A stretch of 64,000 bases of DNA from a virus. Positions 48,407 to 64,000 of the stretch are shown piece after piece. Where the stretch lies: IMG/VR virus record IMGVR_UViG_3300031857_000053, positions 1-64,000 of that record; one strand, written 5' to 3'. Both the position numbers and the translations under genes were made by a program. Every line of letters starts with the position of its first letter. Positions within the stretch are counted from its first letter, which is position 1. The notes beneath the pieces were generated by a model. That model saw only the letters and a list, made by a program, of their open reading frames with translations. It was not told where the DNA came from and did not search any database.

Positions 48407-51400
48407 ATGGCAGATGTAATTTCAGAAGATATTAATTTATCTCTTCCAGATCCAGCAAATCTTGCAGCATCTGTTGCAGGTGGTGTAATGAATCCTCTTC
48501 TTAAAGAGTCTATTGATATTGATTTACCACAACCTCCTCCAAGATATCCAGTTGGTGTATCAGCAACAAATATGATACCTACTCAGACTAATGCATTAAC
48601 TGATTCTAATAGTTTAATAGAGCAAAGTAATAATAGTTTAGCAACAGCAAATCAATGGGCTCGTAATCCATATCAATATGGTAAGTTAAAAACTTATAAT
48701 GCTGATTCTGATGGAGCAAACTTTGCAAGATATGCAGCAGTACCTAGAGTGTTTAAAGAACAAGGCTTTTCTTTATATAGAGATAATGAAGCACTATATA
48801 ATGAGAATGCTACATGGTGGGATTATTTTAAAAGAAGTGCCGGTGCATCTTGGGAACTATTTAAAACAGGGTTTACAGATATGTTACCTTGGAATGCTTG
48901 GGATGGTAAATCATCAGATCTTGTAGCAGCAAAAGAGATGGAAAGATGGCACGCAATTGGTGCCGATAGTAGATCTGGAGTAGGATCTTTTATAAATAAT
49001 ATGACAGTAGATTCTGGATACACTTTTGGTATTCTTGGTGAATTTGCTGCAGAAGAAATAGCTCTTTGGGGAGCAACAGCTCTTTCTGGTGGAGCTCTTG
49101 GTGAAGTTGCTTTAACAAGAACTGGTAAAAAAATAGATGATGTTATAGATGCACTTAGTATAGAAAAATTTAGAGCAAAAGTAAATAAAGCTTATGATTG
49201 GATGAAGAGTCCTGATAAGATGAAAGATATTTATAGTTATGCTAAAGGAACTCTTAAACGTGCTGGTAAAACTTTAATACCTCAAACAGGAAGTTTTATA
49301 GCTAATGATATCATTGCTGCTGGTAAAAAAGGAGATCTTGTTTTTAATATGGCAAAAGCTTCAAAAGGATTTGGCGCTTTTTACCGAGATAGTCGAGCTG
49401 TAGCTGCAGTTTTATCTGAAGCATCTTTAGAAGGTGGTAGTGCAGAACTCATGGTAAGAGATCAATTGATTGATGGATTCTATGATAAAAACGGTAGACT
49501 TCCTAATGATAAAGAGATGTCGGCAATTTACAGTGAAGCAGCTAATGCTGGTAGAGAAACATATCTTTGGAATTTACCAGCTCTTTATATTTCAAATCAA
49601 ATAGTTTTTGAAACAGCTCTTAAAGGATTTAAACCTGCTGCTGTATTTAGAGAGGAATTAAGAACAGGATTAAGTGGACGATTGGCTTTTAATGAAGCTT
49701 GGAAAAAAGCTGGTGTAAAAGCTTGGACTACTGTTGAAGAAGGAGCACTACAAAGTTTTAAAAATATATTTAATCCTACTACATATAAACCTAAAAATCT
49801 TTTAAGAAATACTGTTGGTAAATTTGCTCTTTATACTAAAGAAAATTTAGCAGAAGGTTTACAAGAGGTATATCAAGATGCTGTTCAAAAGACAATGGTA
49901 GATTATTATTCTGCTAGATTTACGCATCCTGCTCTTTCTGGATCTAGATCTGTGTGGGGAGAGTTTGCAAAAAATATTGGTAATCCTAATTTAGAAACTT
50001 TTGCATCTGGATTTTTAATGGGATCTATGGTACAGATTCCACAAAAAATTGCTTTTAATTATTTACCTAAACAATTTTATAAACTTACAAATAGAGCTGA
50101 GTATGATAAAAATATGGCTCTACAACAAGAGCATACCGATAAAGTAGTAGATGCTATGAATTATTTTACTATGGGTGAAAAGTATTATGATTCTATTAAT
50201 GAAAATGCGGTAGTTCAATTAAATGGTAATGCTGAAGCTCAACAAGCTAATATGGCTGGTGATAAAAAAGCTTTTGGTGATATAACAGATGAGACAGAAG
50301 GAAATCACTTTATGACTTTACTTGAAAGTGGTAAATTAGATATTCTTGTAGATCAATTTAAAGATCTTAAAGGTCTTAATAAAGAAGCTTTAGAAGAAGC
50401 TTTTGGTCCAGTAGATAAATCTATAGCTGAAGATTCATATACATTTTATCAAAATAGACTTGATAACATGATTAAGAAATCTGAACAATTAAAAAAATTA
50501 TACGAGACTGCAGAAAGAGAAATAGGTGATGGTCCTTTTCATCCTAGTACAGTTGATGGAAAAAAAGATCCTAAATTATATGAAGCCATGATGCAAGGAG
50601 CTATTGCTCACAAGATGGCTAAAAGAGATTTTGTATTACAAAATTATTCTTTCTATAGAACTCTTCAGAGAGTAGATAGTCTTACTAATAATTTAGTTTC
50701 AAATAGTGAGTTAGCTAAAACATCAGCTTCAGATTTAATGTTAGCTACTTCTCCTCAATTGATGGTCGATGAAATAGCTATTACAAAAAAATTATTAGAA
50801 GGTTATAAAACAATTGAAAAAGATCCTGATAATAAATCAAAGATTCAATCACTTGAAGAAAGATTAGAATATCTAGAAGAATTACAAAGTGCAATAGAAG
50901 GTATTACAGTAGCTCAAAAATTAGAACCTAGTAGAGAATTAGGTACTCAAGTAAAAGAAATAGAAGATGCTGATAAAGCAGCTAGAATAGATGAAGGTAC
51001 TGTAGTTAAAAATAAAAAAGGAAAAGAGCATAAAGTATCTTATGTAAAAAAAGGTGATGCATATAATAGTAAAGGTGAAAAAATTGGAAAGTTAAAAGAT
51101 CTTGATATTGTTAGTCAACCGGAAGGCAAAGAGGAAAAAGATGCTATGACATATGCAACAGAAAGATTATTCAATGCATATTCACAGTGGATGAAATACT
51201 CAGCTAAAGTAAATAACAATGATAATGTAACAGATAGAGCTATTGAAAAATCATTTGCTGATTTCCGAGATATTTATTTATTAAAACAAGATTCTAAATT
51301 TTTAGGTGAAACTATTCAAACTCTTTTAAATCCTAATTATTTTAGAGTATATACTGAAAGATTAAGAAATGTTATTGCTGATATAGATAAATCTCGAAAA

Positions 51401-53911
51401 ACTTTATTAAAAAATTCTTATGAAAGATTTTTAAGATTAAGAAAGATGAATGATTTATTCAATCAGCTTTATGAGATGAAAGTTTTTTTAGATGAGAGAG
51501 GAATGCAAGATGTTTTAAATAATCGTGTTCCATCTATATTTTTTAATATTCCTAAAGCTAAAGATAGTATAACACCAGTATCTTTTGATTCTGAAAAATA
51601 TAGACAGATCTTAGATTTATTTGAAAAATATGAACAAACATCTGGTAAGCAATTTGAAAATAAACCAATTGTTGAAGCAATTCCATTTATTAGTGAGACT
51701 ATCAATTATAATATAGAGAATAGGGAAAAAGGAGAAGATAAAAGAACTTTAGCTGAGCATGCTGCATATTGGGGATTTGATCCTGAGATGAAAACTATAA
51801 CTTCAATTAAAACATTAGATGTTTTAAAAAAGATAGTTGATAGTCCTTATTCTACTTATAAAGAAAAAGCTTTAGCTAGAAGATTACTTACTATTGTTAA
51901 AGCTAATAGTGAAATAAAATTTGAAAAACTTTCACGTCCAAATAAAGCATTATATACCGATGAAGGAAAAATGGGAATGAGTGTAGATCCTAGATATTCA
52001 TCTTCTGATTTTGGAATTACAAAAAACTTTTCATTACCTATTGAAGCAATTATTCTTAATACAGTTATTAAGGATATTACAGCTTATGATATGTCAAAAA
52101 ATCTTGCTTTTAAAAATGATGTTGCTAAATTATTTGAAGCAGCTAAAGAAGAATTTAAAAAGAATAGACCAGCGAATGCTACTTTATTTGGAGATAAAGT
52201 TGATTTTGAATTTTATGGTTTAAGAAATCAAGAAGATTTTGTAGCGGAAGCTCTTACTAATGATCGCTTTGCAACGTGGTTAAAAACTATTGATTATCAA
52301 ACTACCGGTAAATCTGCGTGGCAAGAACTATTAGATATGCTTAGTCAATTCTTTGCAAAGATTTTAGGTATATCAAAAGATAATACTCTTTTAGATGAAG
52401 TAGTATATGTCGTTACTAAACATATTGATAAAATAGAAGGAGTTACTGAAGATAGTTTAGCTCAAGAAGCTAAATACAAAGCAGCAACTCAAGCTGGGAC
52501 AAATGTTCCAGGTGGTATATCTAAAGATAGTACTATTAACGAACTTGCTGCAGCAGGTGTTTTAAAAGAACTTGTTGCTGATTACAAAAGAATTAATAGT
52601 GAGAGACAAGTTGTAGCTCCAGATTCTGTATACGATCCACTTTATGATCAGCGTCCAGAGTCAGAGCTTATTGAAACTGAAGGATTCAAAAGATATCTTG
52701 ACTCTACATCAGCAAGTAATATTATTAGTGCTCACAATAGAAAGAAAGGTATTACTCCATCAACTACAATAACTACTCCTACTACTACTCCTGTTTCTGA
52801 TATAGAAGCTAAGAGAGCTGATATAGAAAAAAGAAGAAAAGAAAGTCTAAATGCTATTAAACAAAGACCTAATGAAACTTTGTTTACAGCTCCTTATTAT
52901 AAAGAAGGATATAATTTTAAACAGCTTCCTACAGACTCAGCTATGAGAACTGAAGCTGAAGAAAAAGAATATTATGAAATATTAAAAAACAATAATGCGT
53001 TAACTGATGTATCTATTCAAGTTAAAACTAGAGAGGAGGCTGAAAAATTAATCAACGCTAAATATGATACAGAACTAGCTGCTTTAGAAAAAGCTCCTGT
53101 TACTACTGTTGATACAACACCAGTTAATAAAAGAACTAAAGAAAGACTTCTTACTAAAGGTTATAATTATTCTGATATTGATAGTATGAATCAGCAACAA
53201 GCTGAAGCATTATTAGTAGAAGGATATACTAAGAAAGAAAAACTAGAAGCTATAGCTGCAGAAGAAGAATTGCAAAAACAAATTAAACGCGAAAAAGAAT
53301 TACTTACTAAGGTTGAATTAATGGCATCTATTATAAAAGATATTAATGAAGCTGAATATTTAACTGACCTTGCTGCTGTACAAAATAGAGTTTCAGATAT
53401 TATTAATCGTACTCCAGGTGTTTTAGATATAAATGCAATAGAAAGAGGAATTGAGTCTAAGAAAAAATCACTTAGTGCTAATATTGCTTTAGATAAAATG
53501 ATTGTTAATGAGTTTATTAGATTAGATAACAATCAATTAGTAAAAGTAATTGAAATAAATAATAATGGTATTAAAGTACAAACTACAGGAAAAATAGAAG
53601 ATGGTGCTTCTCAAGTTGAATTTTGGATTAACAAAAAACAATTTGATAAAGATCAAAGAGAACCAAATAAAAGATATGTTATGTATAAAGATCAACCAGG
53701 TATAGAAGAAGTCACAGGTATACCGGTAACTTCACAAGAAGATGTTGAATCTACAAAAGAGAATGTTACTAGTGCTAGAACATTAGTTTCTGATGAAGAT
53801 TTACAAAATGAATTTAAAGAAGTAGAATCTCAAGAAATAGTTGATCTAGAAAAGGATTTTCTTGATACCTTAGATCAGTGTTTACCGGGTAGTCAACTTT
53901 CCATTTTTTAA
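48407..53911 (+). CDS. large ejection protein with membrane-like segments and a degenerate zincin domain
   Basis: 1834 aa; Gly/Ala hydrophobic segments (GYTFGILGEFAAEEIALWGATALSGGALG; FASGFLMGSMV), EGLQEVYQ, long coiled coils, YGL.N.EDFVAEALTN. Confidence 0.65.
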   Translation: MADVISEDINLSLPDPANLAASVAGGVMNPLLKESIDIDLPQPPPRYPVGVSATNMIPTQTNALTDSNSLIEQSNNSLATANQWARNPYQYGKLKTYNADSDGANFARYAAVPRVFKEQGFSLYRDNEALYNENATWWDYFKRSAGASWELFKTGFTDMLPWNAWDGKSSDLVAAKEMERWHAIGADSRSGVGSFINNMTVDSGYTFGILGEFAAEEIALWGATALSGGALGEVALTRTGKKIDDVIDALSIEKFRAKVNKAYDWMKSPDKMKDIYSYAKGTLKRAGKTLIPQTGSFIANDIIAAGKKGDLVFNMAKASKGFGAFYRDSRAVAAVLSEASLEGGSAELMVRDQLIDGFYDKNGRLPNDKEMSAIYSEAANAGRETYLWNLPALYISNQIVFETALKGFKPAAVFREELRTGLSGRLAFNEAWKKAGVKAWTTVEEGALQSFKNIFNPTTYKPKNLLRNTVGKFALYTKENLAEGLQEVYQDAVQKTMVDYYSARFTHPALSGSRSVWGEFAKNIGNPNLETFASGFLMGSMVQIPQKIAFNYLPKQFYKLTNRAEYDKNMALQQEHTDKVVDAMNYFTMGEKYYDSINENAVVQLNGNAEAQQANMAGDKKAFGDITDETEGNHFMTLLESGKLDILVDQFKDLKGLNKEALEEAFGPVDKSIAEDSYTFYQNRLDNMIKKSEQLKKLYETAEREIGDGPFHPSTVDGKKDPKLYEAMMQGAIAHKMAKRDFVLQNYSFYRTLQRVDSLTNNLVSNSELAKTSASDLMLATSPQLMVDEIAITKKLLEGYKTIEKDPDNKSKIQSLEERLEYLEELQSAIEGITVAQKLEPSRELGTQVKEIEDADKAARIDEGTVVKNKKGKEHKVSYVKKGDAYNSKGEKIGKLKDLDIVSQPEGKEEKDAMTYATERLFNAYSQWMKYSAKVNNNDNVTDRAIEKSFADFRDIYLLKQDSKFLGETIQTLLNPNYFRVYTERLRNVIADIDKSRKTLLKNSYERFLRLRKMNDLFNQLYEMKVFLDERGMQDVLNNRVPSIFFNIPKAKDSITPVSFDSEKYRQILDLFEKYEQTSGKQFENKPIVEAIPFISETINYNIENREKGEDKRTLAEHAAYWGFDPEMKTITSIKTLDVLKKIVDSPYSTYKEKALARRLLTIVKANSEIKFEKLSRPNKALYTDEGKMGMSVDPRYSSSDFGITKNFSLPIEAIILNTVIKDITAYDMSKNLAFKNDVAKLFEAAKEEFKKNRPANATLFGDKVDFEFYGLRNQEDFVAEALTNDRFATWLKTIDYQTTGKSAWQELLDMLSQFFAKILGISKDNTLLDEVVYVVTKHIDKIEGVTEDSLAQEAKYKAATQAGTNVPGGISKDSTINELAAAGVLKELVADYKRINSERQVVAPDSVYDPLYDQRPESELIETEGFKRYLDSTSASNIISAHNRKKGITPSTTITTPTTTPVSDIEAKRADIEKRRKESLNAIKQRPNETLFTAPYYKEGYNFKQLPTDSAMRTEAEEKEYYEILKNNNALTDVSIQVKTREEAEKLINAKYDTELAALEKAPVTTVDTTPVNKRTKERLLTKGYNYSDIDSMNQQQAEALLVEGYTKKEKLEAIAAEEELQKQIKREKELLTKVELMASIIKDINEAEYLTDLAAVQNRVSDIINRTPGVLDINAIERGIESKKKSLSANIALDKMIVNEFIRLDNNQLVKVIEINNNGIKVQTTGKIEDGASQVEFWINKKQFDKDQREPNKRYVMYKDQPGIEEVTGIPVTSQEDVESTKENVTSARTLVSDEDLQNEFKEVESQEIVDLEKDFLDTLDQCLPGSQLSIF

Positions 53912-53929
53912 TTAAAAAACTATAAAGAC

Positions 53930-56900
53930 ATGATTTGTAATTTAGCTAATAATGAATCTTATAAACCTTTCCGAAAATATATCTTTAAAAAGTTATCTCT
54001 AGCTCCAGAAGGTTTTACATTAGAATCTTTTACTAAAGATATCTATAGAAAAGTATATGATAATACTACTGGTACTCCTGAAGATAAACATGCTAATGCT
54101 ATTAATCATGTTGCAATAGGAACTATATTTTTAAATCGTATTCAAGCATTAGAACCTTCAGTTTATGATACTATTAAAGATATAGATTTTAATAAATTTA
54201 TAAAACTTGTAAATAATATTAGTAAATCAGAACCTGATTTTTCTTCATTAGAAGAAATGTTAGGTTTGAAAAATAATCCTGTTGAAGAACTTAAAGAACT
54301 TAATGCTGCAGCTGCTGAATCTAGAGATAACAGTACAGCGGGTATACAGATGACATTATTTGAAGGTAGCGATATTAAAGTTAACGAAGAAGATGAACCA
54401 GCTGATACCACAAATAATAATATGGTAACTGCTACTGAAGAATATCAAGGTAAAGATACTGTTCAAGCGGATCAAGATAGAGAAACTATAAATATAGATA
54501 ATCCTAAATCTCCAGATTATTATAAAGCGAATCCTTTATATAGATTTTATTATAAAGTTAAAAGAGGTGTTTTAAAATTATTACAAAGACCAGGAACTAA
54601 TTTTGATAGTTCTCAAATTACTATTCCTTATAATGGAAAGAAAGGTGTATACTTAACAGTAATGAGTTCTAGTAAATTAAGTAGAGATGATTTTAAAGAA
54701 GATCCTACAATAGGAGGTAGCAATGATAAAAAGTTTATTTACGATGCTGGTGAACCAGTGTTTGTTTTAACTGATGTAGATGGTATTCCAGTTAAGTTTA
54801 ATGAAGAAGGTCAATTTGATGAAAATGGTAAATTATCTTATCATAAATTTAGAAATATTTATTCAACTCAAGTAAAAGATGGTAAAGTTTCTTTATACAA
54901 AAGTGCTAATCTAAATGCTTTAGATGATGTAAAAAGAGTAGATCTTTTAAAACAAAAATTAATGAAGCTTAATCCAGGGCTTAGTGAAAAAAATGCTAAA
55001 GCTCAAGCTGAAAAAACAATACTTGATCAACTTCAAATTATATATGATATTAGACAAGCTCTTAAAGCTAATCCAAATTTAATAGTTAAGACTGTTATAA
55101 ATGGTGGTTCAATGGGAGCTGTAAAAAAAGATATGAGTGTCAAAACACCTCTTGAGAATTTAACAATAGGTAATAGAGATTTTACTATTTATGCTGTAAA
55201 AAGTGATAGCGAAAATTCTGGATACACTTATACTAACACTGATGCTACAGGTTCTTATGATGTTGAAATAACTCGTCCTGATATTAGTCAAGTTGAAGGA
55301 TTAACAGATACAATTGTTTCTATATTATTTGATAAAGGTATAAGTAAAGATAAAGGAGTTTCAAAAGCTATTACTGCTGAAACTAGAAAAGAATTATTAC
55401 AAAATTATATATTTACTAGAACTGAAGGTTTAGATATGTTTGTTAATGAAGATGGTGGGTATACTGTTAAAATAGGAGGACAAGAAATTTATAGATTAAA
55501 AAATAAAAATTATACTTCAGTTGAAGAAGCTGCTCTTCTTGAAAAAAGAAAAAGTGCTGAAAAATTAGTTCGAGAATATTTTACTACGCTTGCTCCTCAA
55601 GCTGAGATCTTAGAAAAAGATCTTAATGATGTTGACATGAAAAATATAATTGAAGGAACTATTGATAAAGTTAGAGATCAATTTAAAAAAGGATATGTTT
55701 TTTATAATACAGAAAATAAAAAGTATTATAGAATAGGTTATCCTATACATCATATTAATGCTAAATATCAAAATGCTACTTATCCTGGTTTAACTCTTTC
55801 TAAAGAAGGAAACAATACAATATTTACAATTGATCGTAATGCTTCATATAATAACTATATAAAGAAAAATTTTACAATACCTTTTGAGTTAAATGAGAGT
55901 GGAGAGATTCCATCTCTTAATGCTTTTTATACTTATGAGTATGCTGAGGGTGAATTAAATAAAATATATAAGCCAGCTGAATCTACATCAGCTCAACCAT
56001 CTACTAGTGTTAAACCTGCTACTAGAAAAACATACTCTGGGAAAGTAACTAAGTTGACACTTAATCAAATATTTGTATTTGGAAGTAATCCTGAAGGAAG
56101 ACATGGTGCTGGTGCTGCTAAAGATGCTAAAGATTTATTTGGTGCAAAGTATGGACAAGGAAGAGGGATGCAAGGTCAATCTTATGCACTTGTAACTAAG
56201 AATCTTAAAGCTGGATTTGTTGAACCTAGCACAGGTATAACATATAAAAAAGCAGGAGAAAAGAGTGTTTCAAAAGAACAAATAATTGAAAACATAAAAG
56301 AGCTATATTCAGTTGCTAAAGAAAATACAAATAAAGAATTTTTAATACCTGATTACTCTAAAAGCAATCTTAATGGTTATACAGGTCAAGAAATGGCAGA
56401 TATGTTTAGTGCTGCTGGACCTATACCAAATAATATTGTGTTTCATAAAAACTTTGATAAATTAATTACTACTCAACCATCTACTAGTGTTAATCCATTA
56501 GTAGAAGCAGGAATTAAACCTTCTGATATGTTTGGTAATGCTGCTAAAGATATTCAGATGGCATCTGAATCTACTCAGTTTATTGGATTTGGTACAATAA
56601 TGAAAGAAGGTAATGTATCTTCTACAGATAAATATGCTAAAGCTTGGGGTACTAAAGCTAATACAGGAGTGTATACAGCTGGTGATACTATAATGGTATC
56701 AGGAAGTGGTAACTTTGGTAGAGGAGGTGTTGATAAAACTGTTGAAGCACAAGCTATTAGAAAAACACTTAGTGAAAAATATAAACCTTTATTAGATAAG
56801 GCTATAGAAGCAGGTGCATCTTTTAGAATTGGTAATCAATATGCAAAAGGTAATTTGTCAGATCAATTAGTTGCAGATTATTTACAAAAAAAGGGTTATA

Positions 56901-59900
56901 CTGAAGAAAAACTTAATGGTTATTCTAGATGGGTATCTCCTACCAAAACTACTCAACCATCTACTAGTGTTAATAAAGGTGTAGAAATATCTTCTAATGC
57001 TAAAGGTTTAGCAGCGGCACTCACTAATCCTACAGAGTTAGCTAAATCAAAAGGTAATATTAAACAATCTTATCCTATATATTTTCAATGGTTAGATAAA
57101 AATGGAGAAGTAAGAGATTCAAACTTTAAAGATGTTGAACAAGCTTATCAAAAATTAAAAGATAATTCTGAAGCTAAAACAAAACCTACTAAAGAAAATA
57201 GTAATAATTATAAACTAATGGTAGATTTGATAAAAGCTAAATTAGAACAACATCCCAGATTAGTTTTAGAAATAACTAAACAAGGAGGTTCAGCTTGGAT
57301 ATTATCTTCTACACATCAACCAACTAAACAAAATACTGTTTGGGAAACAGGTGGACAAAACTGGTTTATTCAAGCTCTCAATGATGCTTATTTATCTACA
57401 CAACCATCTACTAGTGTTTCTGTAGATACTAAAGCTGATATTACTTTACCTACTACACCTGATCAACAAAATACTAATTCTATTGATCAAGCTCTTAATA
57501 TTATTGATGATGCAATTAATAATTTTGATAAACTTAAAGCTTTAAAACTTATTGATCAAAAAGCTACAGTAGAACAAATAGAAGCAGCTAAAAAGTGGTG
57601 GGAAAACCATCCTATGTCTAGTAAAATTCCGCTCTATGTTTTATTCAATGCTGTTAATACTAAAAATCCAACATCAATTGCTAATTGGACATTAGATGGT
57701 ATTACACTATATCAAGGTGCTGATTACTCTGATTTGTATCACGAAGCATGGCACGGGTTTACTCAGATGTTTTTAACTAAAGAACAGAAAGAAAATCTTT
57801 ATAAAGAAGTAGGAAAAAAATCTGGTGGTTTTACAGATTATAAAGGAAACTATACTTTATTTAAAGATGCTAAACCAAAACAACTAGAAGAATATTTAGC
57901 TGAAGATTTTAGAAATTATATGTTATCTGGAGGTAAGAAGATTGCTGGTAAAGCTCCTGTTAGAAATAAAATTTTTAAGTTTATTGCTGATATATTAGAA
58001 TGGTTATTTGGAAATCTTACAAGAGAACAAATAGCTAATGGTACAGAAAGCTTAAGCACTATTCATGACTTATATGAAAAACTTCGTGTAGGTAATCTTA
58101 GTGAGTATACTTTCTCTCAAAGCAATGCTCAATATGATAAGCTTAGTAAAGGAGAGATTTTAGCTACAAGAAATACTGATAAACCTGTTGACGATATAGA
58201 TACTAAAAACTATATCTTAAATATGGTTGATTCTTTTTTATCTCAATATGTTGATAGAGTTTCTGAAGGAAAAAGAAAAAAATATATTGCTAATGCTAGA
58301 CTTCAAGCTGAAGCTAGAGGAGAAACTTTTGTAGAATCTACAGCAGAACTTTCATATAAATATACCGCAACATTATTAAAAACAGCAGAAGGTAGAAAGT
58401 TAGCTTATGGTTATGCTCAAGAAATGATTAAAGCTATTCATGATGGACTTGTATTATTACAACAAAATGAAAGTAGTGAAATTATTCGTGCTAATAGAAA
58501 AAAAATAATTGATACTTTAAGTTGGACTTATAATAACTTTGGAGATATAAATAATCTTAAAAATAATAAGATAGATAAGGAGGGTAGATTTCAAAATGTT
58601 ATTGCGTTTCATACTGCTAAAAGTAGATTATTTACTAAACAAGAAAAAGAACTTTTCTTTAGTGAAGATGCGCTTAATGAAGAAGATTTATTTTTAATTG
58701 GAAGAGATGGTTTAGGAAGTGTAGGTGGTAATGAAAAATCATCTAAAGAATTAGCATCAGAAGATATCCTTATTATGATGAATAGTTTACATGAGGTAGA
58801 TGCTAAAGGTAATACTATATATGTAGAAGGAACTGAAGTTGAAATAGAAACTAAACAAGGTGTTAAGCTTAAGATAGGTGTACCTAAGCTTCAAGATTTT
58901 GATGTTACTTGGAATATTCTATCTAAGAAATTAGAAAATAATCAAGATGCTGAGAACATGTACGCGATCTTAAGTGATCTTGCAAAGTCAAAACCTAATC
59001 TTCCATTTAAACAATTATTAAATAAACTTGGTCCAATAAAAACTGCGGGATCAGCAGAGTTTAGATTATGGACTAATTTTTGGCAAACTTTTAATTTATC
59101 TAGAGTTGGTTTAGTATATACTAAAGTTAATATAACAACTAAAACAGAGAGTAAAGGTGAGGTTAAAGAATTAAATTTTGATAATTGGGAATTTACAGCT
59201 AGACCTACTAAAGCTACCACTAGTATAAATACAATTAAAAAAAATTGGGATTATGCTTTTAGAATGAAAGATAAAGGTGATTATATCGGTAAAGATTCTC
59301 TTGGACAAAATTATCTTTTATTAGATAAGATTTTAGAAGATTTTAAAGATAATATAAAAGGAAAAGAATTTGAGTTTTTTAAAGCAATAGGTATAGATTT
59401 TGATACAAATAATGAAGATATTCTTAAAGAAGTTTCTTCTAAAAATTCTTTAGATACAGCTAAAAGAATTTATAATATTATTAAAGCTTTATCTAATGCT
59501 AAATATAAAGAAGAACCTCTTATAGGAAAACCTAAATATACTATATATGCTCCATCTCAATTATTTAAAGAAATATATGAAATAGGTGAAGATAAACAAT
59601 ATGTTTGGAAAGATAAATTTGAAATAGATTCTCAAGGTAATAGACGTAAAGTAGGAACTGAAAAAAAATTTTTAGTAGATATAGGTTATAAAACATCAGG
59701 AGAAGGAACAAGATTTGATAACTTAGCTGAAATTCAAGCTGAGTATTCTGATAAATGGGGAACTAATCAAGTTACAAATGCAGAAGGTAATACTCAATTT
59801 GATTTAACATTAAATAATTTTCTTACTGTTTTAAAGAATACACTTAATCAAGTACAAGATGTAAAAGATGCTAACGGCAAAGTTATTATACCTGCATATA

Positions 59901-62900
59901 AAGTTTTAATTAGTCTTCCATGGATGAGTAATTTAGATGTAGATAAAAATCCAGATGCTGAGTCTTCTATTTTATTAAATTCTTTATTTGATCTTAATAA
60001 AAATAGTACAAAATATGGTGAAAGAATAAAAGATGAAAAAACTAAATCTGGATATGTAGAAGTACAATTAAAAAATCTTAGTGGAGTAGCATTTAATAAA
60101 GATGATGTTTATGATGAAAAGAAATCTACTTCTTTATTTAATTCAGATCCTTTAACAAAACTAGTAGCAGATTTTCATACTGGTTTGATGAATGGAAATT
60201 TTGAGTTAATGCGTCACTCAGATAAAGGAACATCTTTTAGTTTCTTTACTACTTCTTTAGATAAAAAGAATATTAATAATAGAAATAAATATTTATATGT
60301 TGATACTGCAGATTTTGTTACAAGTTTAGGAACAAAGAATGCTATTAATAAATATATTTTTCCAACTTTAAATTCAGAATTTAAGCGAATAAAAAAGTTT
60401 AGAAATATTAAACAAGCAGTAGAAGATGCTAGAAAAGAAACTGATCCGGAAAAAAAGAAGGATATGTTTAAAGCAATTGGTAATACTGATTTTAATTATA
60501 TAGAAAAAGGATCTTCTTTTGTAACATTTCAAGGTGTTTTATCTCCAGAAACTAAAGTAAAAATACTTAAGCAACTAGATAAAAATAGTTTAACAGAATA
60601 CTTAAATACTCCAGAAGGTTTTGAATTAAAAGTTGAAATTGGAAAAGATATTCAAAATTATTTTAATAATCAAATTGAAGCTGTAAGTAAAAAGTTTCCT
60701 GTTAGAAGAAGTGGTGTTAAACTTATAAGTGGTGATATTATTAAAAAAATAAAAGATCATGTTACAGCTAATTATACTGAAGGATTAGGTCTTTCACAAA
60801 CAGGAAAAGATATACTTAGAAATACTGATTTTAATAAAGTAGCTTTAAGATCTTTTGTAATTAATTCTTGGATACATAATACTGAAAGTATCAAATTAGT
60901 TTATGGAAACCTTGCTCAATATAATATGGCTAAGGAAGAATTTCATAAGAGAAATGCTGGTTCAAGTTCTACTGGTACACTTTATAGAACTGATAAAGCT
61001 GCAATGGATTATGTAAATAATATTCTTAATGGTGGTGATACATATGCTAAATCAATAGGACAAACTAATAGATATTATGATGGAACTCTTAATACAGCAA
61101 TTGTACAAGATAGTGTTCAAAGATCTGTTTATATAGAAGATTATTCTAAAGACTTAATTGCTGAACAATTAAAAAGAAATGGTGGAAATCAACGAGAAGC
61201 TGAGAAAAAAGTTTTTGGTTACGATGAAAAAAATAATAAAGTTGGTACTCTAGAAAAACCAATTAAGGGTGGATTAATTACAGCATATACTGATATGAAA
61301 GAAGGAGATGGTCAAGGTTGGGTAACTTTTGATTCATATAGAATGCTATTAAACTTAGAAGGTAAGTGGTCAGATTCACAAGAAAATTTATATCAAAAAA
61401 TAGTAAAAGGTGAACAAGTTTCTAGTGCTGATATAGCTTTCTTTTTTCCTCCACAAAAGTTACAATACTGGGGACCTCTTGGTAACAGATTATCTGGTAA
61501 AGCTGCAATAGGACAAAAGATTAATTCTGATGTACAGCTTACAGCTATGCACAAGTTTTCTTTAGTACCACTTATTCCTACTGTAATTAAAGATAAAAGA
61601 ATTCAAAAGCTCCACGATAAGATGGTTCGAGAGCAAGTGGATTATGTAACATTTGAATCCGGATCAAAGATTAGTAATATTACAAGTGCTGAAAAGTTTG
61701 GAGAGAATGGCAAACAAACTTTTGATCTTTTTTACGCAGATAATAAGCGTAATATTAGTGAGGAACCATTTACAATCAATCCTATTTATGTAAACTATTT
61801 AAAGAATCAGTTAGAGATAGCACCTAAGTTTAAAAAGAAAGTAACTTTTTCTACTCAGCTTAGAAAACTTATTGAAGATGGTTTAGTAGAGAATGGTGTG
61901 CCAATTGATTTTGGAAGAAATTTATCTCGTGAAAAAAGAATTGAAGCTTGGGATGCTATTACAACAGAAGATGCTAAGATGGCCGCATCTCCTAAGTATA
62001 AGATCTATAAAACATATGAGAATAAATTAAAGAAACTTACCGAGCTTAAAAGAGATCAACTTTTAGAAGAGATGGGTTGGAAGATGGTGAATGGTAAACC
62101 AGTTGGTACAATAGAGAACTTAGTTAGATTTGTTAAAGCTGAATTAGAAAGACAAAATTTAGGAGATCATGAAATAGATTTCTTAGATGTAGTTGATGGT
62201 GGTACAAAGCTTAAAACAGATGCTTCATTTTCTTTGTCTGCAGATAAGATTGAAAAGTTACTTAATTCTATTGTAGTAAATAGATTGATCAAACAAAAAA
62301 TTAATGGTGAAGCTTTAATCCAAGTATCTACTGCTGGTTATGAAAATAATGAAGCTTGGGATGCAGCAAGAGGTGCTACTGAAGAAGAGTTAGAAAAGTG
62401 GGGAACAGATGATCTTCCTACTTATAGAAAAGGAAAAGATGGAATTACTAAAGCAATGAAAGTGAAAGTTGCTTTACAAGGAAAGTTTTTATCTCTACTT
62501 AATCTTAATCATAATGATGGTCAAACTATAGCTGTTTATGATATTGTTAATGGTAAAAAAGTTCTTAATCTAGAATCATCTAGAACAAGACTTAATTCCA
62601 TGATTAAAAATGAAGAGTGGTTAAATAAAGAAAATCATCGTAAGATGATTACTATGGTTGGTGTTCGTATTCCAGTACAAGGATTAAATTCTATGGAGTT
62701 TATGGAAGTATACGAATTCTTACCAGAGGAAGCAGGTAATATTATTATACCTCCAACAGAGATTGTAGCTAAATCAGGAGCTGACTTCGATATCGATAAG
62801 CTTACAGTGATGATGCCTAATATAAAAACCAAAATAAATAAAGCTAAAATTACTAATGCTTTATTAAGAGAACTTGGTGAAAAAAATCCAACTTTAGATT

Positions 62901-64000
62901 TTAGTAGAGATAATATTAATATGCTACTTGATTTTGAAAAAGGATCTGGTGGCGCATATACTCTTACCGAAGAAGATTTAAATACACTTCGTATTCTAGA
63001 AGAAACTAGTGAAGTAAGTGTAGTTTATCCTACTGGAGATAATTCTATAGAAGGATTAGAGAATGATCTTATTTGGAATATAAAAGATATTTTAGCATTG
63101 CCGGAAAACTTTGTTAATCTTATTACACCTAATAGTACTGATACAGTTCAACCAATTGCTACTAAACTTGCACCTTTAGTTAAAGATTATGATCAGATGC
63201 AGAAAACAGCTGGTGATATTACTACTTTATCTAAAGAAGATCAAGCTTTATTAAATGAGAATCCTAATGTGATGGAAGGAACTAGAGTATTGGAAATACT
63301 TTATAATATTTCTAAGCAACAGTATAATCAGATTGGTAAAGAGACTTTAGGTATTGGAGCTGTAGATAATACTTTCAATATTCTATTGAATAGAATTGGA
63401 GCTTATATGAATGCTTATGCTACTGTAAAATCATTTAATGGTAAAAATAAAACTACAATTAGACAAACATTAAAGTTTAAACATAATACTCTTAATATAA
63501 ATGGTCAAGATGTTATTTCTTTATCGCATTTATACGATAATAATGATTTAAATAGAGTTTCAGATATTATCTCTCAAATGATGAATGGTTGGGTGGACGT
63601 TGCAAAAGATGCTTGGATTTTTGATATTCAAGGTAACAAGGATCTTTCTCCTACACTTTTGTTTATGATTCAAGCGGGTGTCTCAATAGAGAATGCTATT
63701 TATATGGTTTCTCAACCTATGGTAAGAGAATATATAAGATTAAAGAAGACCGCTCAAAGTAGTGTATCAGATGTTATTACTGATGTTGATACTAAATATC
63801 CAGGTTTTGCAGCAAAGAAAATGATCATTGATAAATACTTTTCACAAGATGCAGATTTTGGTTCTCAAATTGCTGCAGCAAATGATATTATAAATGATGA
63901 AGTACGTGAAAAAAAATTAAATGCGATCTATGGTAATGTTAATGTCGCTAATACTAGTGCTGAAATTATAAATAGAGTTTTTGGTGATAATGATATTGAT
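53930..64000 (+). CDS. virion-packaged single-chain RNA polymerase polyprotein (3'-truncated, at least 3357 aa; absent from ORF track)
   Basis: ATG at 53930 (MICNLANNESYKPF...). Motifs checked in frame: HEAWH zincin at 57740, RIPVQG at 62666, and catalytic GADFDIDK (DFDID at 62783-62797) as in the phi14:2/crAss vRNAP. DGQGW, STQLRK and GWVDVAKD are also present. Confidence 0.9.
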   Translation, partial: MICNLANNESYKPFRKYIFKKLSLAPEGFTLESFTKDIYRKVYDNTTGTPEDKHANAINHVAIGTIFLNRIQALEPSVYDTIKDIDFNKFIKLVNNISKSEPDFSSLEEMLGLKNNPVEELKELNAAAAESRDNSTAGIQMTLFEGSDIKVNEEDEPADTTNNNMVTATEEYQGKDTVQADQDRETINIDNPKSPDYYKANPLYRFYYKVKRGVLKLLQRPGTNFDSSQITIPYNGKKGVYLTVMSSSKLSRDDFKEDPTIGGSNDKKFIYDAGEPVFVLTDVDGIPVKFNEEGQFDENGKLSYHKFRNIYSTQVKDGKVSLYKSANLNALDDVKRVDLLKQKLMKLNPGLSEKNAKAQAEKTILDQLQIIYDIRQALKANPNLIVKTVINGGSMGAVKKDMSVKTPLENLTIGNRDFTIYAVKSDSENSGYTYTNTDATGSYDVEITRPDISQVEGLTDTIVSILFDKGISKDKGVSKAITAETRKELLQNYIFTRTEGLDMFVNEDGGYTVKIGGQEIYRLKNKNYTSVEEAALLEKRKSAEKLVREYFTTLAPQAEILEKDLNDVDMKNIIEGTIDKVRDQFKKGYVFYNTENKKYYRIGYPIHHINAKYQNATYPGLTLSKEGNNTIFTIDRNASYNNYIKKNFTIPFELNESGEIPSLNAFYTYEYAEGELNKIYKPAESTSAQPSTSVKPATRKTYSGKVTKLTLNQIFVFGSNPEGRHGAGAAKDAKDLFGAKYGQGRGMQGQSYALVTKNLKAGFVEPSTGITYKKAGEKSVSKEQIIENIKELYSVAKENTNKEFLIPDYSKSNLNGYTGQEMADMFSAAGPIPNNIVFHKNFDKLITTQPSTSVNPLVEAGIKPSDMFGNAAKDIQMASESTQFIGFGTIMKEGNVSSTDKYAKAWGTKANTGVYTAGDTIMVSGSGNFGRGGVDKTVEAQAIRKTLSEKYKPLLDKAIEAGASFRIGNQYAKGNLSDQLVADYLQKKGYTEEKLNGYSRWVSPTKTTQPSTSVNKGVEISSNAKGLAAALTNPTELAKSKGNIKQSYPIYFQWLDKNGEVRDSNFKDVEQAYQKLKDNSEAKTKPTKENSNNYKLMVDLIKAKLEQHPRLVLEITKQGGSAWILSSTHQPTKQNTVWETGGQNWFIQALNDAYLSTQPSTSVSVDTKADITLPTTPDQQNTNSIDQALNIIDDAINNFDKLKALKLIDQKATVEQIEAAKKWWENHPMSSKIPLYVLFNAVNTKNPTSIANWTLDGITLYQGADYSDLYHEAWHGFTQMFLTKEQKENLYKEVGKKSGGFTDYKGNYTLFKDAKPKQLEEYLAEDFRNYMLSGGKKIAGKAPVRNKIFKFIADILEWLFGNLTREQIANGTESLSTIHDLYEKLRVGNLSEYTFSQSNAQYDKLSKGEILATRNTDKPVDDIDTKNYILNMVDSFLSQYVDRVSEGKRKKYIANARLQAEARGETFVESTAELSYKYTATLLKTAEGRKLAYGYAQEMIKAIHDGLVLLQQNESSEIIRANRKKIIDTLSWTYNNFGDINNLKNNKIDKEGRFQNVIAFHTAKSRLFTKQEKELFFSEDALNEEDLFLIGRDGLGSVGGNEKSSKELASEDILIMMNSLHEVDAKGNTIYVEGTEVEIETKQGVKLKIGVPKLQDFDVTWNILSKKLENNQDAENMYAILSDLAKSKPNLPFKQLLNKLGPIKTAGSAEFRLWTNFWQTFNLSRVGLVYTKVNITTKTESKGEVKELNFDNWEFTARPTKATTSINTIKKNWDYAFRMKDKGDYIGKDSLGQNYLLLDKILEDFKDNIKGKEFEFFKAIGIDFDTNNEDILKEVSSKNSLDTAKRIYNIIKALSNAKYKEEPLIGKPKYTIYAPSQLFKEIYEIGEDKQYVWKDKFEIDSQGNRRKVGTEKKFLVDIGYKTSGEGTRFDNLAEIQAEYSDKWGTNQVTNAEGNTQFDLTLNNFLTVLKNTLNQVQDVKDANGKVIIPAYKVLISLPWMSNLDVDKNPDAESSILLNSLFDLNKNSTKYGERIKDEKTKSGYVEVQLKNLSGVAFNKDDVYDEKKSTSLFNSDPLTKLVADFHTGLMNGNFELMRHSDKGTSFSFFTTSLDKKNINNRNKYLYVDTADFVTSLGTKNAINKYIFPTLNSEFKRIKKFRNIKQAVEDARKETDPEKKKDMFKAIGNTDFNYIEKGSSFVTFQGVLSPETKVKILKQLDKNSLTEYLNTPEGFELKVEIGKDIQNYFNNQIEAVSKKFPVRRSGVKLISGDIIKKIKDHVTANYTEGLGLSQTGKDILRNTDFNKVALRSFVINSWIHNTESIKLVYGNLAQYNMAKEEFHKRNAGSSSTGTLYRTDKAAMDYVNNILNGGDTYAKSIGQTNRYYDGTLNTAIVQDSVQRSVYIEDYSKDLIAEQLKRNGGNQREAEKKVFGYDEKNNKVGTLEKPIKGGLITAYTDMKEGDGQGWVTFDSYRMLLNLEGKWSDSQENLYQKIVKGEQVSSADIAFFFPPQKLQYWGPLGNRLSGKAAIGQKINSDVQLTAMHKFSLVPLIPTVIKDKRIQKLHDKMVREQVDYVTFESGSKISNITSAEKFGENGKQTFDLFYADNKRNISEEPFTINPIYVNYLKNQLEIAPKFKKKVTFSTQLRKLIEDGLVENGVPIDFGRNLSREKRIEAWDAITTEDAKMAASPKYKIYKTYENKLKKLTELKRDQLLEEMGWKMVNGKPVGTIENLVRFVKAELERQNLGDHEIDFLDVVDGGTKLKTDASFSLSADKIEKLLNSIVVNRLIKQKINGEALIQVSTAGYENNEAWDAARGATEEELEKWGTDDLPTYRKGKDGITKAMKVKVALQGKFLSLLNLNHNDGQTIAVYDIVNGKKVLNLESSRTRLNSMIKNEEWLNKENHRKMITMVGVRIPVQGLNSMEFMEVYEFLPEEAGNIIIPPTEIVAKSGADFDIDKLTVMMPNIKTKINKAKITNALLRELGEKNPTLDFSRDNINMLLDFEKGSGGAYTLTEEDLNTLRILEETSEVSVVYPTGDNSIEGLENDLIWNIKDILALPENFVNLITPNSTDTVQPIATKLAPLVKDYDQMQKTAGDITTLSKEDQALLNENPNVMEGTRVLEILYNISKQQYNQIGKETLGIGAVDNTFNILLNRIGAYMNAYATVKSFNGKNKTTIRQTLKFKHNTLNINGQDVISLSHLYDNNDLNRVSDIISQMMNGWVDVAKDAWIFDIQGNKDLSPTLLFMIQAGVSIENAIYMVSQPMVREYIRLKKTAQSSVSDVITDVDTKYPGFAAKKMIIDKYFSQDADFGSQIAAANDIINDEVREKKLNAIYGNVNVANTSAEIINRVFGDNDID
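55994..57418 (+). repeat. four identical in-frame 18-bp direct repeats CAACCATCTACTAGTGTT (QPSTSV)
   Basis: Copies at 55994-56011, 56474-56491, 56954-56971 and 57401-57418; periods 480, 480 and 447 nt. Confidence 0.95.

Follow-up and report, generated by a model that had tools for sequence, protein, structure and literature searches.

The giant gene predicted to encode the virion RNA polymerase of an uncultured crAss-like phage lies in a window of 64,000 nucleotides (nt) of DNA, positions 1 to 64,000 of the 107,266-nt IMG/VR virus record IMGVR_UViG_3300031857_000053, and contains four identical copies of a short in-frame repeat, here called the linker, which delimit three unrelated protein domains, here called inserts or cassettes. 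In a lineage of uncultured, AT-rich crAss-like phages the DNA sequence of the linker has been conserved, and the linker is the point at which the giant genes of these phages have exchanged single domains with one another. We consider it probable that the linker acts as a joint for the short-homology exchange of domains in an injected polymerase polyprotein. The polyvalent proteins that phages inject are known to vary in their domains, and how domains could enter or leave a frame of 12 kb without breaking it has so far been unexplained; a junction fixed to the codon would be a concrete and testable mechanism for this.

The linker in the window and in the genome

The 18-mer CAACCATCTACTAGTGTT, which encodes QPSTSV, is present in the window as four exact direct copies, all of them in frame, at residues 689, 849, 1009 and 1158 of an open reading frame (ORF) of 4124 amino acids (aa). 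No further copies were found in the window when up to three mismatches were allowed (0.12 expected by chance), nor in the whole virus record when up to two were allowed. Copies 2 and 3 are identical over a longer stretch, the 27-mer ACTACTCAACCATCTACTAGTGTTAAT. The segments between the four copies measure 154, 154 and 143 aa, and each of them comprises one complete domain. An earlier note, made from the letters of the window, had described four nucleotide-identical repeats of 18 bp at these residues, a longer stretch common to copies 2 and 3 (27 bases, as it proved) and three unrelated inserts bracketed by the repeats, and the search of the window and genome agrees with it on each count. A weak repeat-search match at 59204-59242 (PTKATTSIN), considered as a fifth copy, has seven mismatches to the 18-mer and lacks supporting context; it is probably a chance resemblance.

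Conservation of the linker as DNA

The exact 18-mer was found in 43 other IMG/VR contigs (referred to below, where needed, by our own L numbers), eight of which contain two copies. All 51 copies read as QPSTSV within large ORFs, the longest of which exceed 4000 aa; the flanks are unrelated between contigs, and the codon that precedes the 18-mer is usually ACT (Thr). Every copy found sits in a large ORF, no search having been aimed at promoterless orphan cassettes. By comparison, 596 Gb of prokaryote genomes contained the 18-mer just twice, in unrelated contexts, as would be expected from chance.

A sequence logo of 59 distinct junctions has a sharp core, composed of CTACT, the 18-mer and rA, from position -5 to about +20; beyond these limits the signal drops to background. 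The core of approximately 24 nt, CTACT-CAACCATCTACTAGTGTT-rA, encodes (S/T/P)-T-Q-P-S-T-S-V, and at the synonymous positions -4 and -1, which lie outside the search pattern, T is present in 93% and 98% of junctions, respectively. Given the peptide TQPSTSV, the codon usage of the same ORFs assigns an exact ACT plus 18-mer a probability of 0.0044 (0.44%), so that approximately 0.4% of copies are predicted to be exact, against approximately 85% observed, a figure that is partly ascertained because the initial search picked exact copies. A scan of low-GC giant ORFs with degenerate third positions, which took in only some of the serine codon families, returned approximately 37 contigs with exact copies and only approximately six in which one or two synonymous sites had changed, and none of the matches listed from the relevant ORFs used TCN for the second serine. 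Second copies in the fetched contigs were not chosen for exactness: eight of these are exact, five carry one non-synonymous change (QSSTSV in four, QPSTGV in one) and one carries a synonymous change. Since non-synonymous changes are at least as frequent as synonymous ones in this unselected set, the constraint appears to act on the nucleotides and not on the peptide. Distant homologues of insert 2 are joined by unrelated linkers rich in Ser, Thr, Pro and Gln, which argues that the QPSTSV peptide is dispensable both for the domain and for the polyproteins generally. All of the comparison sequences are metagenome assemblies.

Two minor features of the junctions may be mentioned here. Weaker conservation in the logo reaches to approximately +36, and at the junction at 56972-56983 of the window, as at those of L005, L006, L008, L019, L025 and others, seemingly different cassettes start with (K/N/E)-x-G-V after the linker; for a subset of cassettes the patch of homology may be longer than the core. 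In L018, L020 and L026, half-decayed linkers, for example CAACCATCTACTACTACA (QPSTTT) and CAACCATCTACAACTCCT (QPSTTP), are found at cassette ends approximately 417-492 nt 3' of exact linkers, and decay of the linker seems to be slower in its 5' half than in its 3' half.

Exchange of cassettes at the linker

When junctions of different contigs were compared over 150 nt, 18 pairs were found to be 87-99% identical on one flank (95-99% in 16 of them) and to have a random level of identity, 24-39%, on the other, and in the alignments the switch falls at the linker. A single downstream cassette, for example a P-loop/zeta-toxin-like kinase that starts with KEGVSELFESNPEL, was found behind at least seven different upstream cassettes, and one upstream cassette may precede three different downstream cassettes. 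Comparison of whole ORFs by blastn gave near-identical segments that correspond to single cassettes and whose ends, where the contigs reach both, are a linker or a decayed linker. The cassettes are also considerably more similar than the polymerase cores of the genes that carry them, with identities of 98.8% against 77% (L007/L017), 92.6% against 68-70% (L027/L039) and 97.3% against 77% (L075/L007). In five further junction pairs, again taken from different contigs, both flanks reach at least 85% identity, and four of the five span different metagenome sample ids (L003/L035, L018/L020, L028/L033 and L085/L108). The pool of cassettes found elsewhere includes a canonical NADAR domain (at the linker in L004, E 8.7e-13), a circularly permuted YpsA SLOG domain, AlkB-like 2OG-Fe(II) oxygenases, the zeta-toxin-like kinase and DUF7831, while half of 20 sampled linker-bounded cassettes matched no known family.

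A difference in insert content is seen at the window's own locus in one close relative, the metagenome contig Ga0181352_1001201 (L243), which matches the window at 93% identity in two blocks, 49199-52833 and 53065-55985; together these amount to approximately 6.6 kb and extend over the upstream gene and the N-terminal portion of the polymerase gene. The similarity ends at 55985, 9 nt 5' of linker 1, and restarts at 56969, inside linker 3, continuing at 74% through a cassette of the insert 3 type until the contig ends just beyond linker 4. Inserts 1 and 2 are thus absent from the relative, whose insert 3 is a different allele; the breakpoints lie at linkers 1 and 3, and the junctions of the relative hold the decayed linkers QSSQV and QSSTNV. 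Between the two 93% stretches, window positions 52834-53064 and L243:3660-3935 (approximately 230-280 nt) do not align; this segment, near the C-terminus of the upstream 1834-aa ORF (48407-53911), looks like another locally replaced segment.

The earlier note had ascribed to the repeats a role at the DNA level, as junctions at which domains are gained, lost and shuffled, and the observations bear this out: synonymous sites of the linker are conserved in approximately 45 phages, similarity breaks at the linker, cassettes are more similar than cores, and L243 lacks inserts 1 and 2. Conserved flanks with differing insert content in a relative, an outcome set down beforehand as a check, are what L243 has, and neither of the two outcomes named as contrary, namely the same domains in the same order with diverged repeats in all close relatives, or domain boundaries that lie off the repeats, was seen.

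Mechanism and alternative explanations

Our working hypothesis is that the linkers are copies of a conserved DNA element that lies between the self-contained domains of giant virion RNA polymerase polyproteins. Because every copy has the same frame and comprises whole codons, any crossover between two linkers, whether in co-infecting phages or within one genome, would leave the ORF intact and would add, remove or replace one or more domains. The most likely route would be short-homology recombination by functions of the host or of the phage. Cassettes with intact linkers would keep spreading and those with decayed linkers would become fixed, and such a bias towards intact linkers would keep the synonymous sites fixed without selection on the peptide. 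The domains would probably be delivered with the polymerase at injection and act early, with adducts or signals of ADP-ribose that arise from host defences as plausible targets.

A number of points weigh against this hypothesis. With approximately 24 nt, the core is hardly longer than efficient homologous recombination requires, and in the 107-kb genome (91% complete) no tyrosine (PF00589) or serine (PF00239) recombinase was found by searches whose controls responded, nor was any RecT, ERF, RecA/UvsX or YqaJ protein recognised. The ascertainment of exact copies and the limited serine codon families of the degenerate scans, mentioned above, must also be counted against it. Some distant proteins keep the order insert 1 then 2, or 2 then 3, with diverged, non-canonical linkers, so that not every boundary is in flux. 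With respect to the theme of ADP-ribose, insert 2 is by its structural model a generic Rossmann-like fold without an assignable family, and the Pfam NADAR model PF08719 matched neither insert 3 nor 13 of its homologues at E <= 1. The integron-like mechanism that had been proposed for the array is not supported, because there is no tyrosine or serine recombinase, because single-strand folds of the four repeats revealed no common structure (z -2.3 to +0.8), which led us to reject a consistent attC-type or other conserved hairpin, and because the cassettes are in-frame domains and not separate genes.

It could be argued that a dedicated enzyme recognises the linker, either a site-specific recombinase, as in integrons and shufflons, or a sequence-specific nuclease whose cut would stimulate repair from a co-infecting phage, in which case exchange would be targeted by an enzyme and not by homology alone. 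The unusually sharp restriction of conservation to the core would suit such an enzyme, as would the shortness of the core for efficient general recombination and the presence in it of the palindrome ACTAGT, and a large part of the genome is unannotated. We nevertheless regard this as distinctly unlikely, given the lack of recombinases and of a consistent hairpin already described and the fact that the point where similarity ends varies slightly, in or beside the linker, without a fixed nucleotide. Elsewhere in the genome ACTAGT shows no sign of avoidance (36 sites found, 36 expected), and for this reason the palindrome was dropped as a candidate nuclease target. A related proposal, which we rate as unlikely, is that the linker is dual-purpose in a kind of 'domain integron', the core of approximately 24 nt being targeted by an enzyme of the phage or host that would drive the capture, excision and exchange of effector domains in frame, and the QPSTSV peptide being the cut site of a putative peptidase with the motif HEAWH, encoded just downstream of the array, which would release the individual domains once injected. 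Were it true, everything that is bounded by linkers in metagenomes would form a catalogue of injected counter-defence effectors.

A simpler view is that the motif is kept for reasons of protein function only, as a flexible linker of Thr, Ser and Pro or as a site cleaved by the HEAWH peptidase, and that the identity of the DNA reflects recent descent and codon bias, recombination at the linker being incidental. In favour of this view, the motif is in frame without exception and its composition is typical of linkers, the HEAWH motif just downstream is conserved, an embedded metallopeptidase has been proposed to process polyvalent proteins (PMC5512222), and the codons of homologous flanks likewise show fairly high identity (0.66-0.79). 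Codon bias, however, falls far short of the observed share of exact copies, unselected copies have acquired single non-synonymous changes at least as often as synonymous ones, and the unrelated linkers of distant insert 2 homologues indicate that the peptide is not required; nor would this view account for the position of the breakpoints at the linker or for the 20-30 percentage points by which the similarity of cassettes exceeds that of cores. We therefore hold it to be very unlikely as the sole explanation. A role in cleavage could exist alongside the role as DNA, and the data would allow QPSTSV to serve as the cut site of the putative HEAWH peptidase.

Finally, a repeat common to co-occurring phages is a classic point for chimeras to form, and since all comparison sequences are metagenome assemblies the mosaics might have been created during assembly. 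This is scarcely credible, in our opinion, as five pairs share at least 85% identity on either side of the linker, four of them across different metagenome sample ids, and a long open frame is kept at every junction. A repeat of 18-27 nt is, moreover, far shorter than sequencing reads and the usual final k-mers of assembly.

Comparison with known systems

The giant protein resembles the polyvalent proteins described by Iyer, Burroughs, Anand, de Souza and Aravind in 2017, who raise a possible 'recombinational variability' of cassettes (PMC5512222). Shared features are its size and presumed association with the virion, its many unrelated domains of effector type (including ones related to NAD and ADP-ribose), which are joined to a virion RNA polymerase, and a domain content that varies between relatives. 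The HEAWH motif may be a counterpart of the embedded zincin-like metallopeptidase that is proposed in that work to release parts of the protein. In the window phage three unrelated domains (residues 689-1163) are combined with the polymerase core and a possible C-terminal DUF7831-like domain. The difference is that here a defined in-frame DNA core of approximately 24 nt marks the boundaries and breakpoints of exchange map to it; neither a conserved nucleotide junction nor wording such as 'linker' or 'shuffling' occurs in PMC5512222. The crAss-like phage literature examined makes no mention of a linker of this kind, and QPSTSV is not mentioned in a phage context in the searchable literature.

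The closest mechanistic parallels would appear to be the demarcation motifs of polymorphic toxins and the motif-based recombination of T-even tail fibres. In polymorphic toxins (VENN in CdiA, PxxxxDPxGL in Rhs proteins), a demarcation sequence within the ORF allows homologous recombination to replace the domain that follows while the frame is kept. A conserved in-frame demarcation sequence is likewise found here, with the breakpoints of 18 junction pairs at the linker and identity of the cassettes above that of the core. Polymorphic toxin loci swap only the C-terminal toxin and its immunity gene, whereas the present cassettes are internal, have the same linker on both sides, form arrays of up to three, appear to lack an immunity partner and belong to a structural or ejection protein of a phage. 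In T-even tail-fibre genes, short conserved stretches within the gene (His boxes) are crossover points between diverged phages, and the swaps change receptor-binding segments of one homologous protein; here, by contrast, unrelated enzymatic domains are swapped, and the junction is fixed in nucleotide sequence across phages whose cores have 25-35% protein identity.

Two further systems share the architecture in part. Integron arrays also consist of unrelated modules parted by a repeated boundary element, with the number and identity of modules varying between relatives, but in the giant gene there is no IntI-type integrase and no attC hairpin, the modules are domains in one frame of 4124 aa and the boundary is a coding 18-mer. 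In the R64 shufflon (pilV, sfx, Rci), repeats of approximately 19 bp in one gene join alternative segments in frame; these repeats are inverted, and a dedicated tyrosine recombinase brings about inversion within one replicon. The linkers of the window phage are direct repeats, no recombinase was found, and exchange takes place between genomes.

If the hypothesis of short-homology exchange is correct, modular exchange in these phages acts on single protein domains within an essential virion enzyme, and the linker suggests a natural design rule for in-frame swapping of domains. As a probe, the 18-mer or the 24-mer could also serve to collect from metagenomes the domains that enter the host with these phages at infection.

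The carrier gene

The identification of the gene as a homologue of the crAss-like virion RNA polymerases, which had been made from the window alone, rests on the verified DFDID motif and on relatives: those named by tblastn are crAss-like phages of Bacteroides, Flavobacterium and Cellulophaga (22-27% identity), and the giant ORFs of many IMG/VR contigs are 25-35% identical to the window polymerase over more than 2000 aa. Features of the gene are listed in Table 1. A DxDxD motif has been described for the RNA polymerases of crAss-like phages, and the polymerase of one of them, phi14:2, is borne in the virion and translocated into the host (PMC7886860); by homology, the polymerase of the window phage would be packaged and injected.

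Table 1. Positions of the polymerase gene, its linkers, cassettes and motifs in the window
Feature	Position	Strand	Remarks
Giant ORF of virion RNA polymerase type with the cassette array	53930..64000 in the window, continuing to 66304 in the genome	+	4124 aa
Linker copy 1 (AQPSTSVK)	55994..56011	+	Exact 18-mer
Cassette 1, A1S_2505-family domain with macrodomain-like fold	56012..56473	+	154 aa; NCBIfam, phrog_2072, AlphaFold2 (AF2) and Foldseek
Linker copy 2 (TTQPSTSVN)	56474..56491	+	Exact 18-mer, within the 27-nt identity with copy 3
Cassette 2, Rossmann-like alpha/beta domain, no assignable family	56492..56953	+	154 aa; AF2, homologues
Linker copy 3 (TTQPSTSVN)	56954..56971	+	Exact 18-mer
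Cassette 3, probable minimal NADAR-like domain	56972..57400	+	143 aa; profile comparisons
Linker copy 4 (STQPSTSVS)	57401..57418	+	Exact 18-mer; similarity to other crAss-like polymerase proteins begins directly 3'
HEAWH zincin-type motif, candidate processing peptidase	57740..57754	+	Just 3' of the array; assigned by motif
DFDID catalytic motif, crAss-type RNA polymerase	62783..62797	+	Motif verified

The array is N-terminal to the polymerase core, as it is in L006, and lies between the N-terminal region and the HEAWH motif, which is kept in all five relatives checked (L044, L046, L047, L048 and L051). Neither the HEAWH region (at E <= 1) nor the giant protein, when compared with the polyvalent-protein models, gave a match in Pfam. 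For the N-terminal region of the protein no relative turned up in IMG/VR, and a MAFFT alignment of the N-terminal regions of distant relatives was too uneven to show the array as a clean insertion. The last approximately 195 residues of the polymerase (65717-66301, past the window; L242:1717-2301) have a weak match to DUF7831 (E 1.4e-4, below the cut-off), a domain that is also found as a linker-bounded cassette in L018, L027, L032 and L041; upstream of this stretch the protein reads ...YKQPSGAS..., possibly a decayed linker.

The three cassettes

Insert 1 belongs to a family with more than 1100 free-standing homologues, matching NCBIfam NF049995 (A1S_2505_Nterm) with an E value of 2.9e-28 as well as phrog_2072, although Pfam, including its Macro model, gave no match at E <= 1 and sequence searches of the PDB gave none either. 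Its AF2 model has a macrodomain-like fold: ranks 1-50 of the Foldseek search of the PDB are exclusively macrodomains (alphavirus nsP3, TARG1, YmdB and a bacterial one), with E values from 1e-4, probabilities of 0.99-1.00 and template modelling (TM) scores of 0.50-0.62. In the models of inserts 1 and 2 almost the whole chain is ordered (predicted local distance difference test, pLDDT, 91.7 and 93.6, respectively), and free-standing homologues have lengths that fit those of the inserts (approximately 155 aa, 116-150 aa and 117-147 aa for inserts 1, 2 and 3, respectively). Comparison of inserts 1 and 2 by hhalign indicated no relation (probability 0.6%).

Insert 2 has at least 183 representative homologues, which are mostly found in giant proteins (up to 6057 aa) at differing positions, a few being free-standing. 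The assignment of its model to a generic fold follows from structure searches: Foldseek against PDB and BFVD gave E values of 0.02 or higher and no clear match, a wide search with VIA-align gave a best Z of 5.3, the matches from both programs being generic Rossmann, methyltransferase or HAD-like ones, and the ESM Atlas yielded no usable match. No relation to two SLOG-type cassettes was detected by hhalign. Neither insert 2 nor insert 3 was matched in Pfam, PHROGs, NCBIfam, PDB sequence searches or GenBank phages.

Insert 3 is probably NADAR-like, as three weak lines concur. A profile of its family searched against PDB sequences placed YbiA first (E 0.0056) and a NADAR protein second; hhalign with Escherichia coli YbiA gave a probability of 79% (E 1.6e-5 over 86 columns), with the conserved Y-Q-x-x-K and W-x-x-G motifs aligned; and the nearest ESM Atlas clusters are NADAR/Phage_30_3, the best being NADAR at 0.89, which we take as a lead only.

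The theme of ADP-ribose and NAD that had been suggested for the inserts is thus retained for insert 1, by virtue of its modelled macrodomain fold, and probably for insert 3, and is not supported by insert 2. Macro, NADAR and SLOG domains are reported to be found together in DNA viruses, phages included, and often to be carried in the virion, ready for early use (PMC9503650). We infer that the macro-like and NADAR-like content would fit counter-measures against defences that use ADP-ribose, such as DNA ADP-ribosylation of the DarT type or signals derived from ADP-ribose, and the cassette set is a probable counter-defence toolkit.

Different contigs contain homologues of the three inserts with 64-70% identity, most of these domains being C-terminal to the polymerase core. 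The distant giant proteins P0149, P0152, P0153, P0155 and P0158 have domains of the insert 1 and 2 types, or of the 2 and 3 types, adjacent and in the same order, which hints at a functional pairing of macro-like and Rossmann-like domains. A segment resembling insert 1 is present in the uncultured phage cr50_1, a crAss-like phage of the human gut (MT774375.1 / NC_055868.1, 67687-68056), under a gene annotated as 'DNA helicase', and in Aeromonas and Vibrio phages the insert 1 type of domain is a free-standing hypothetical protein.

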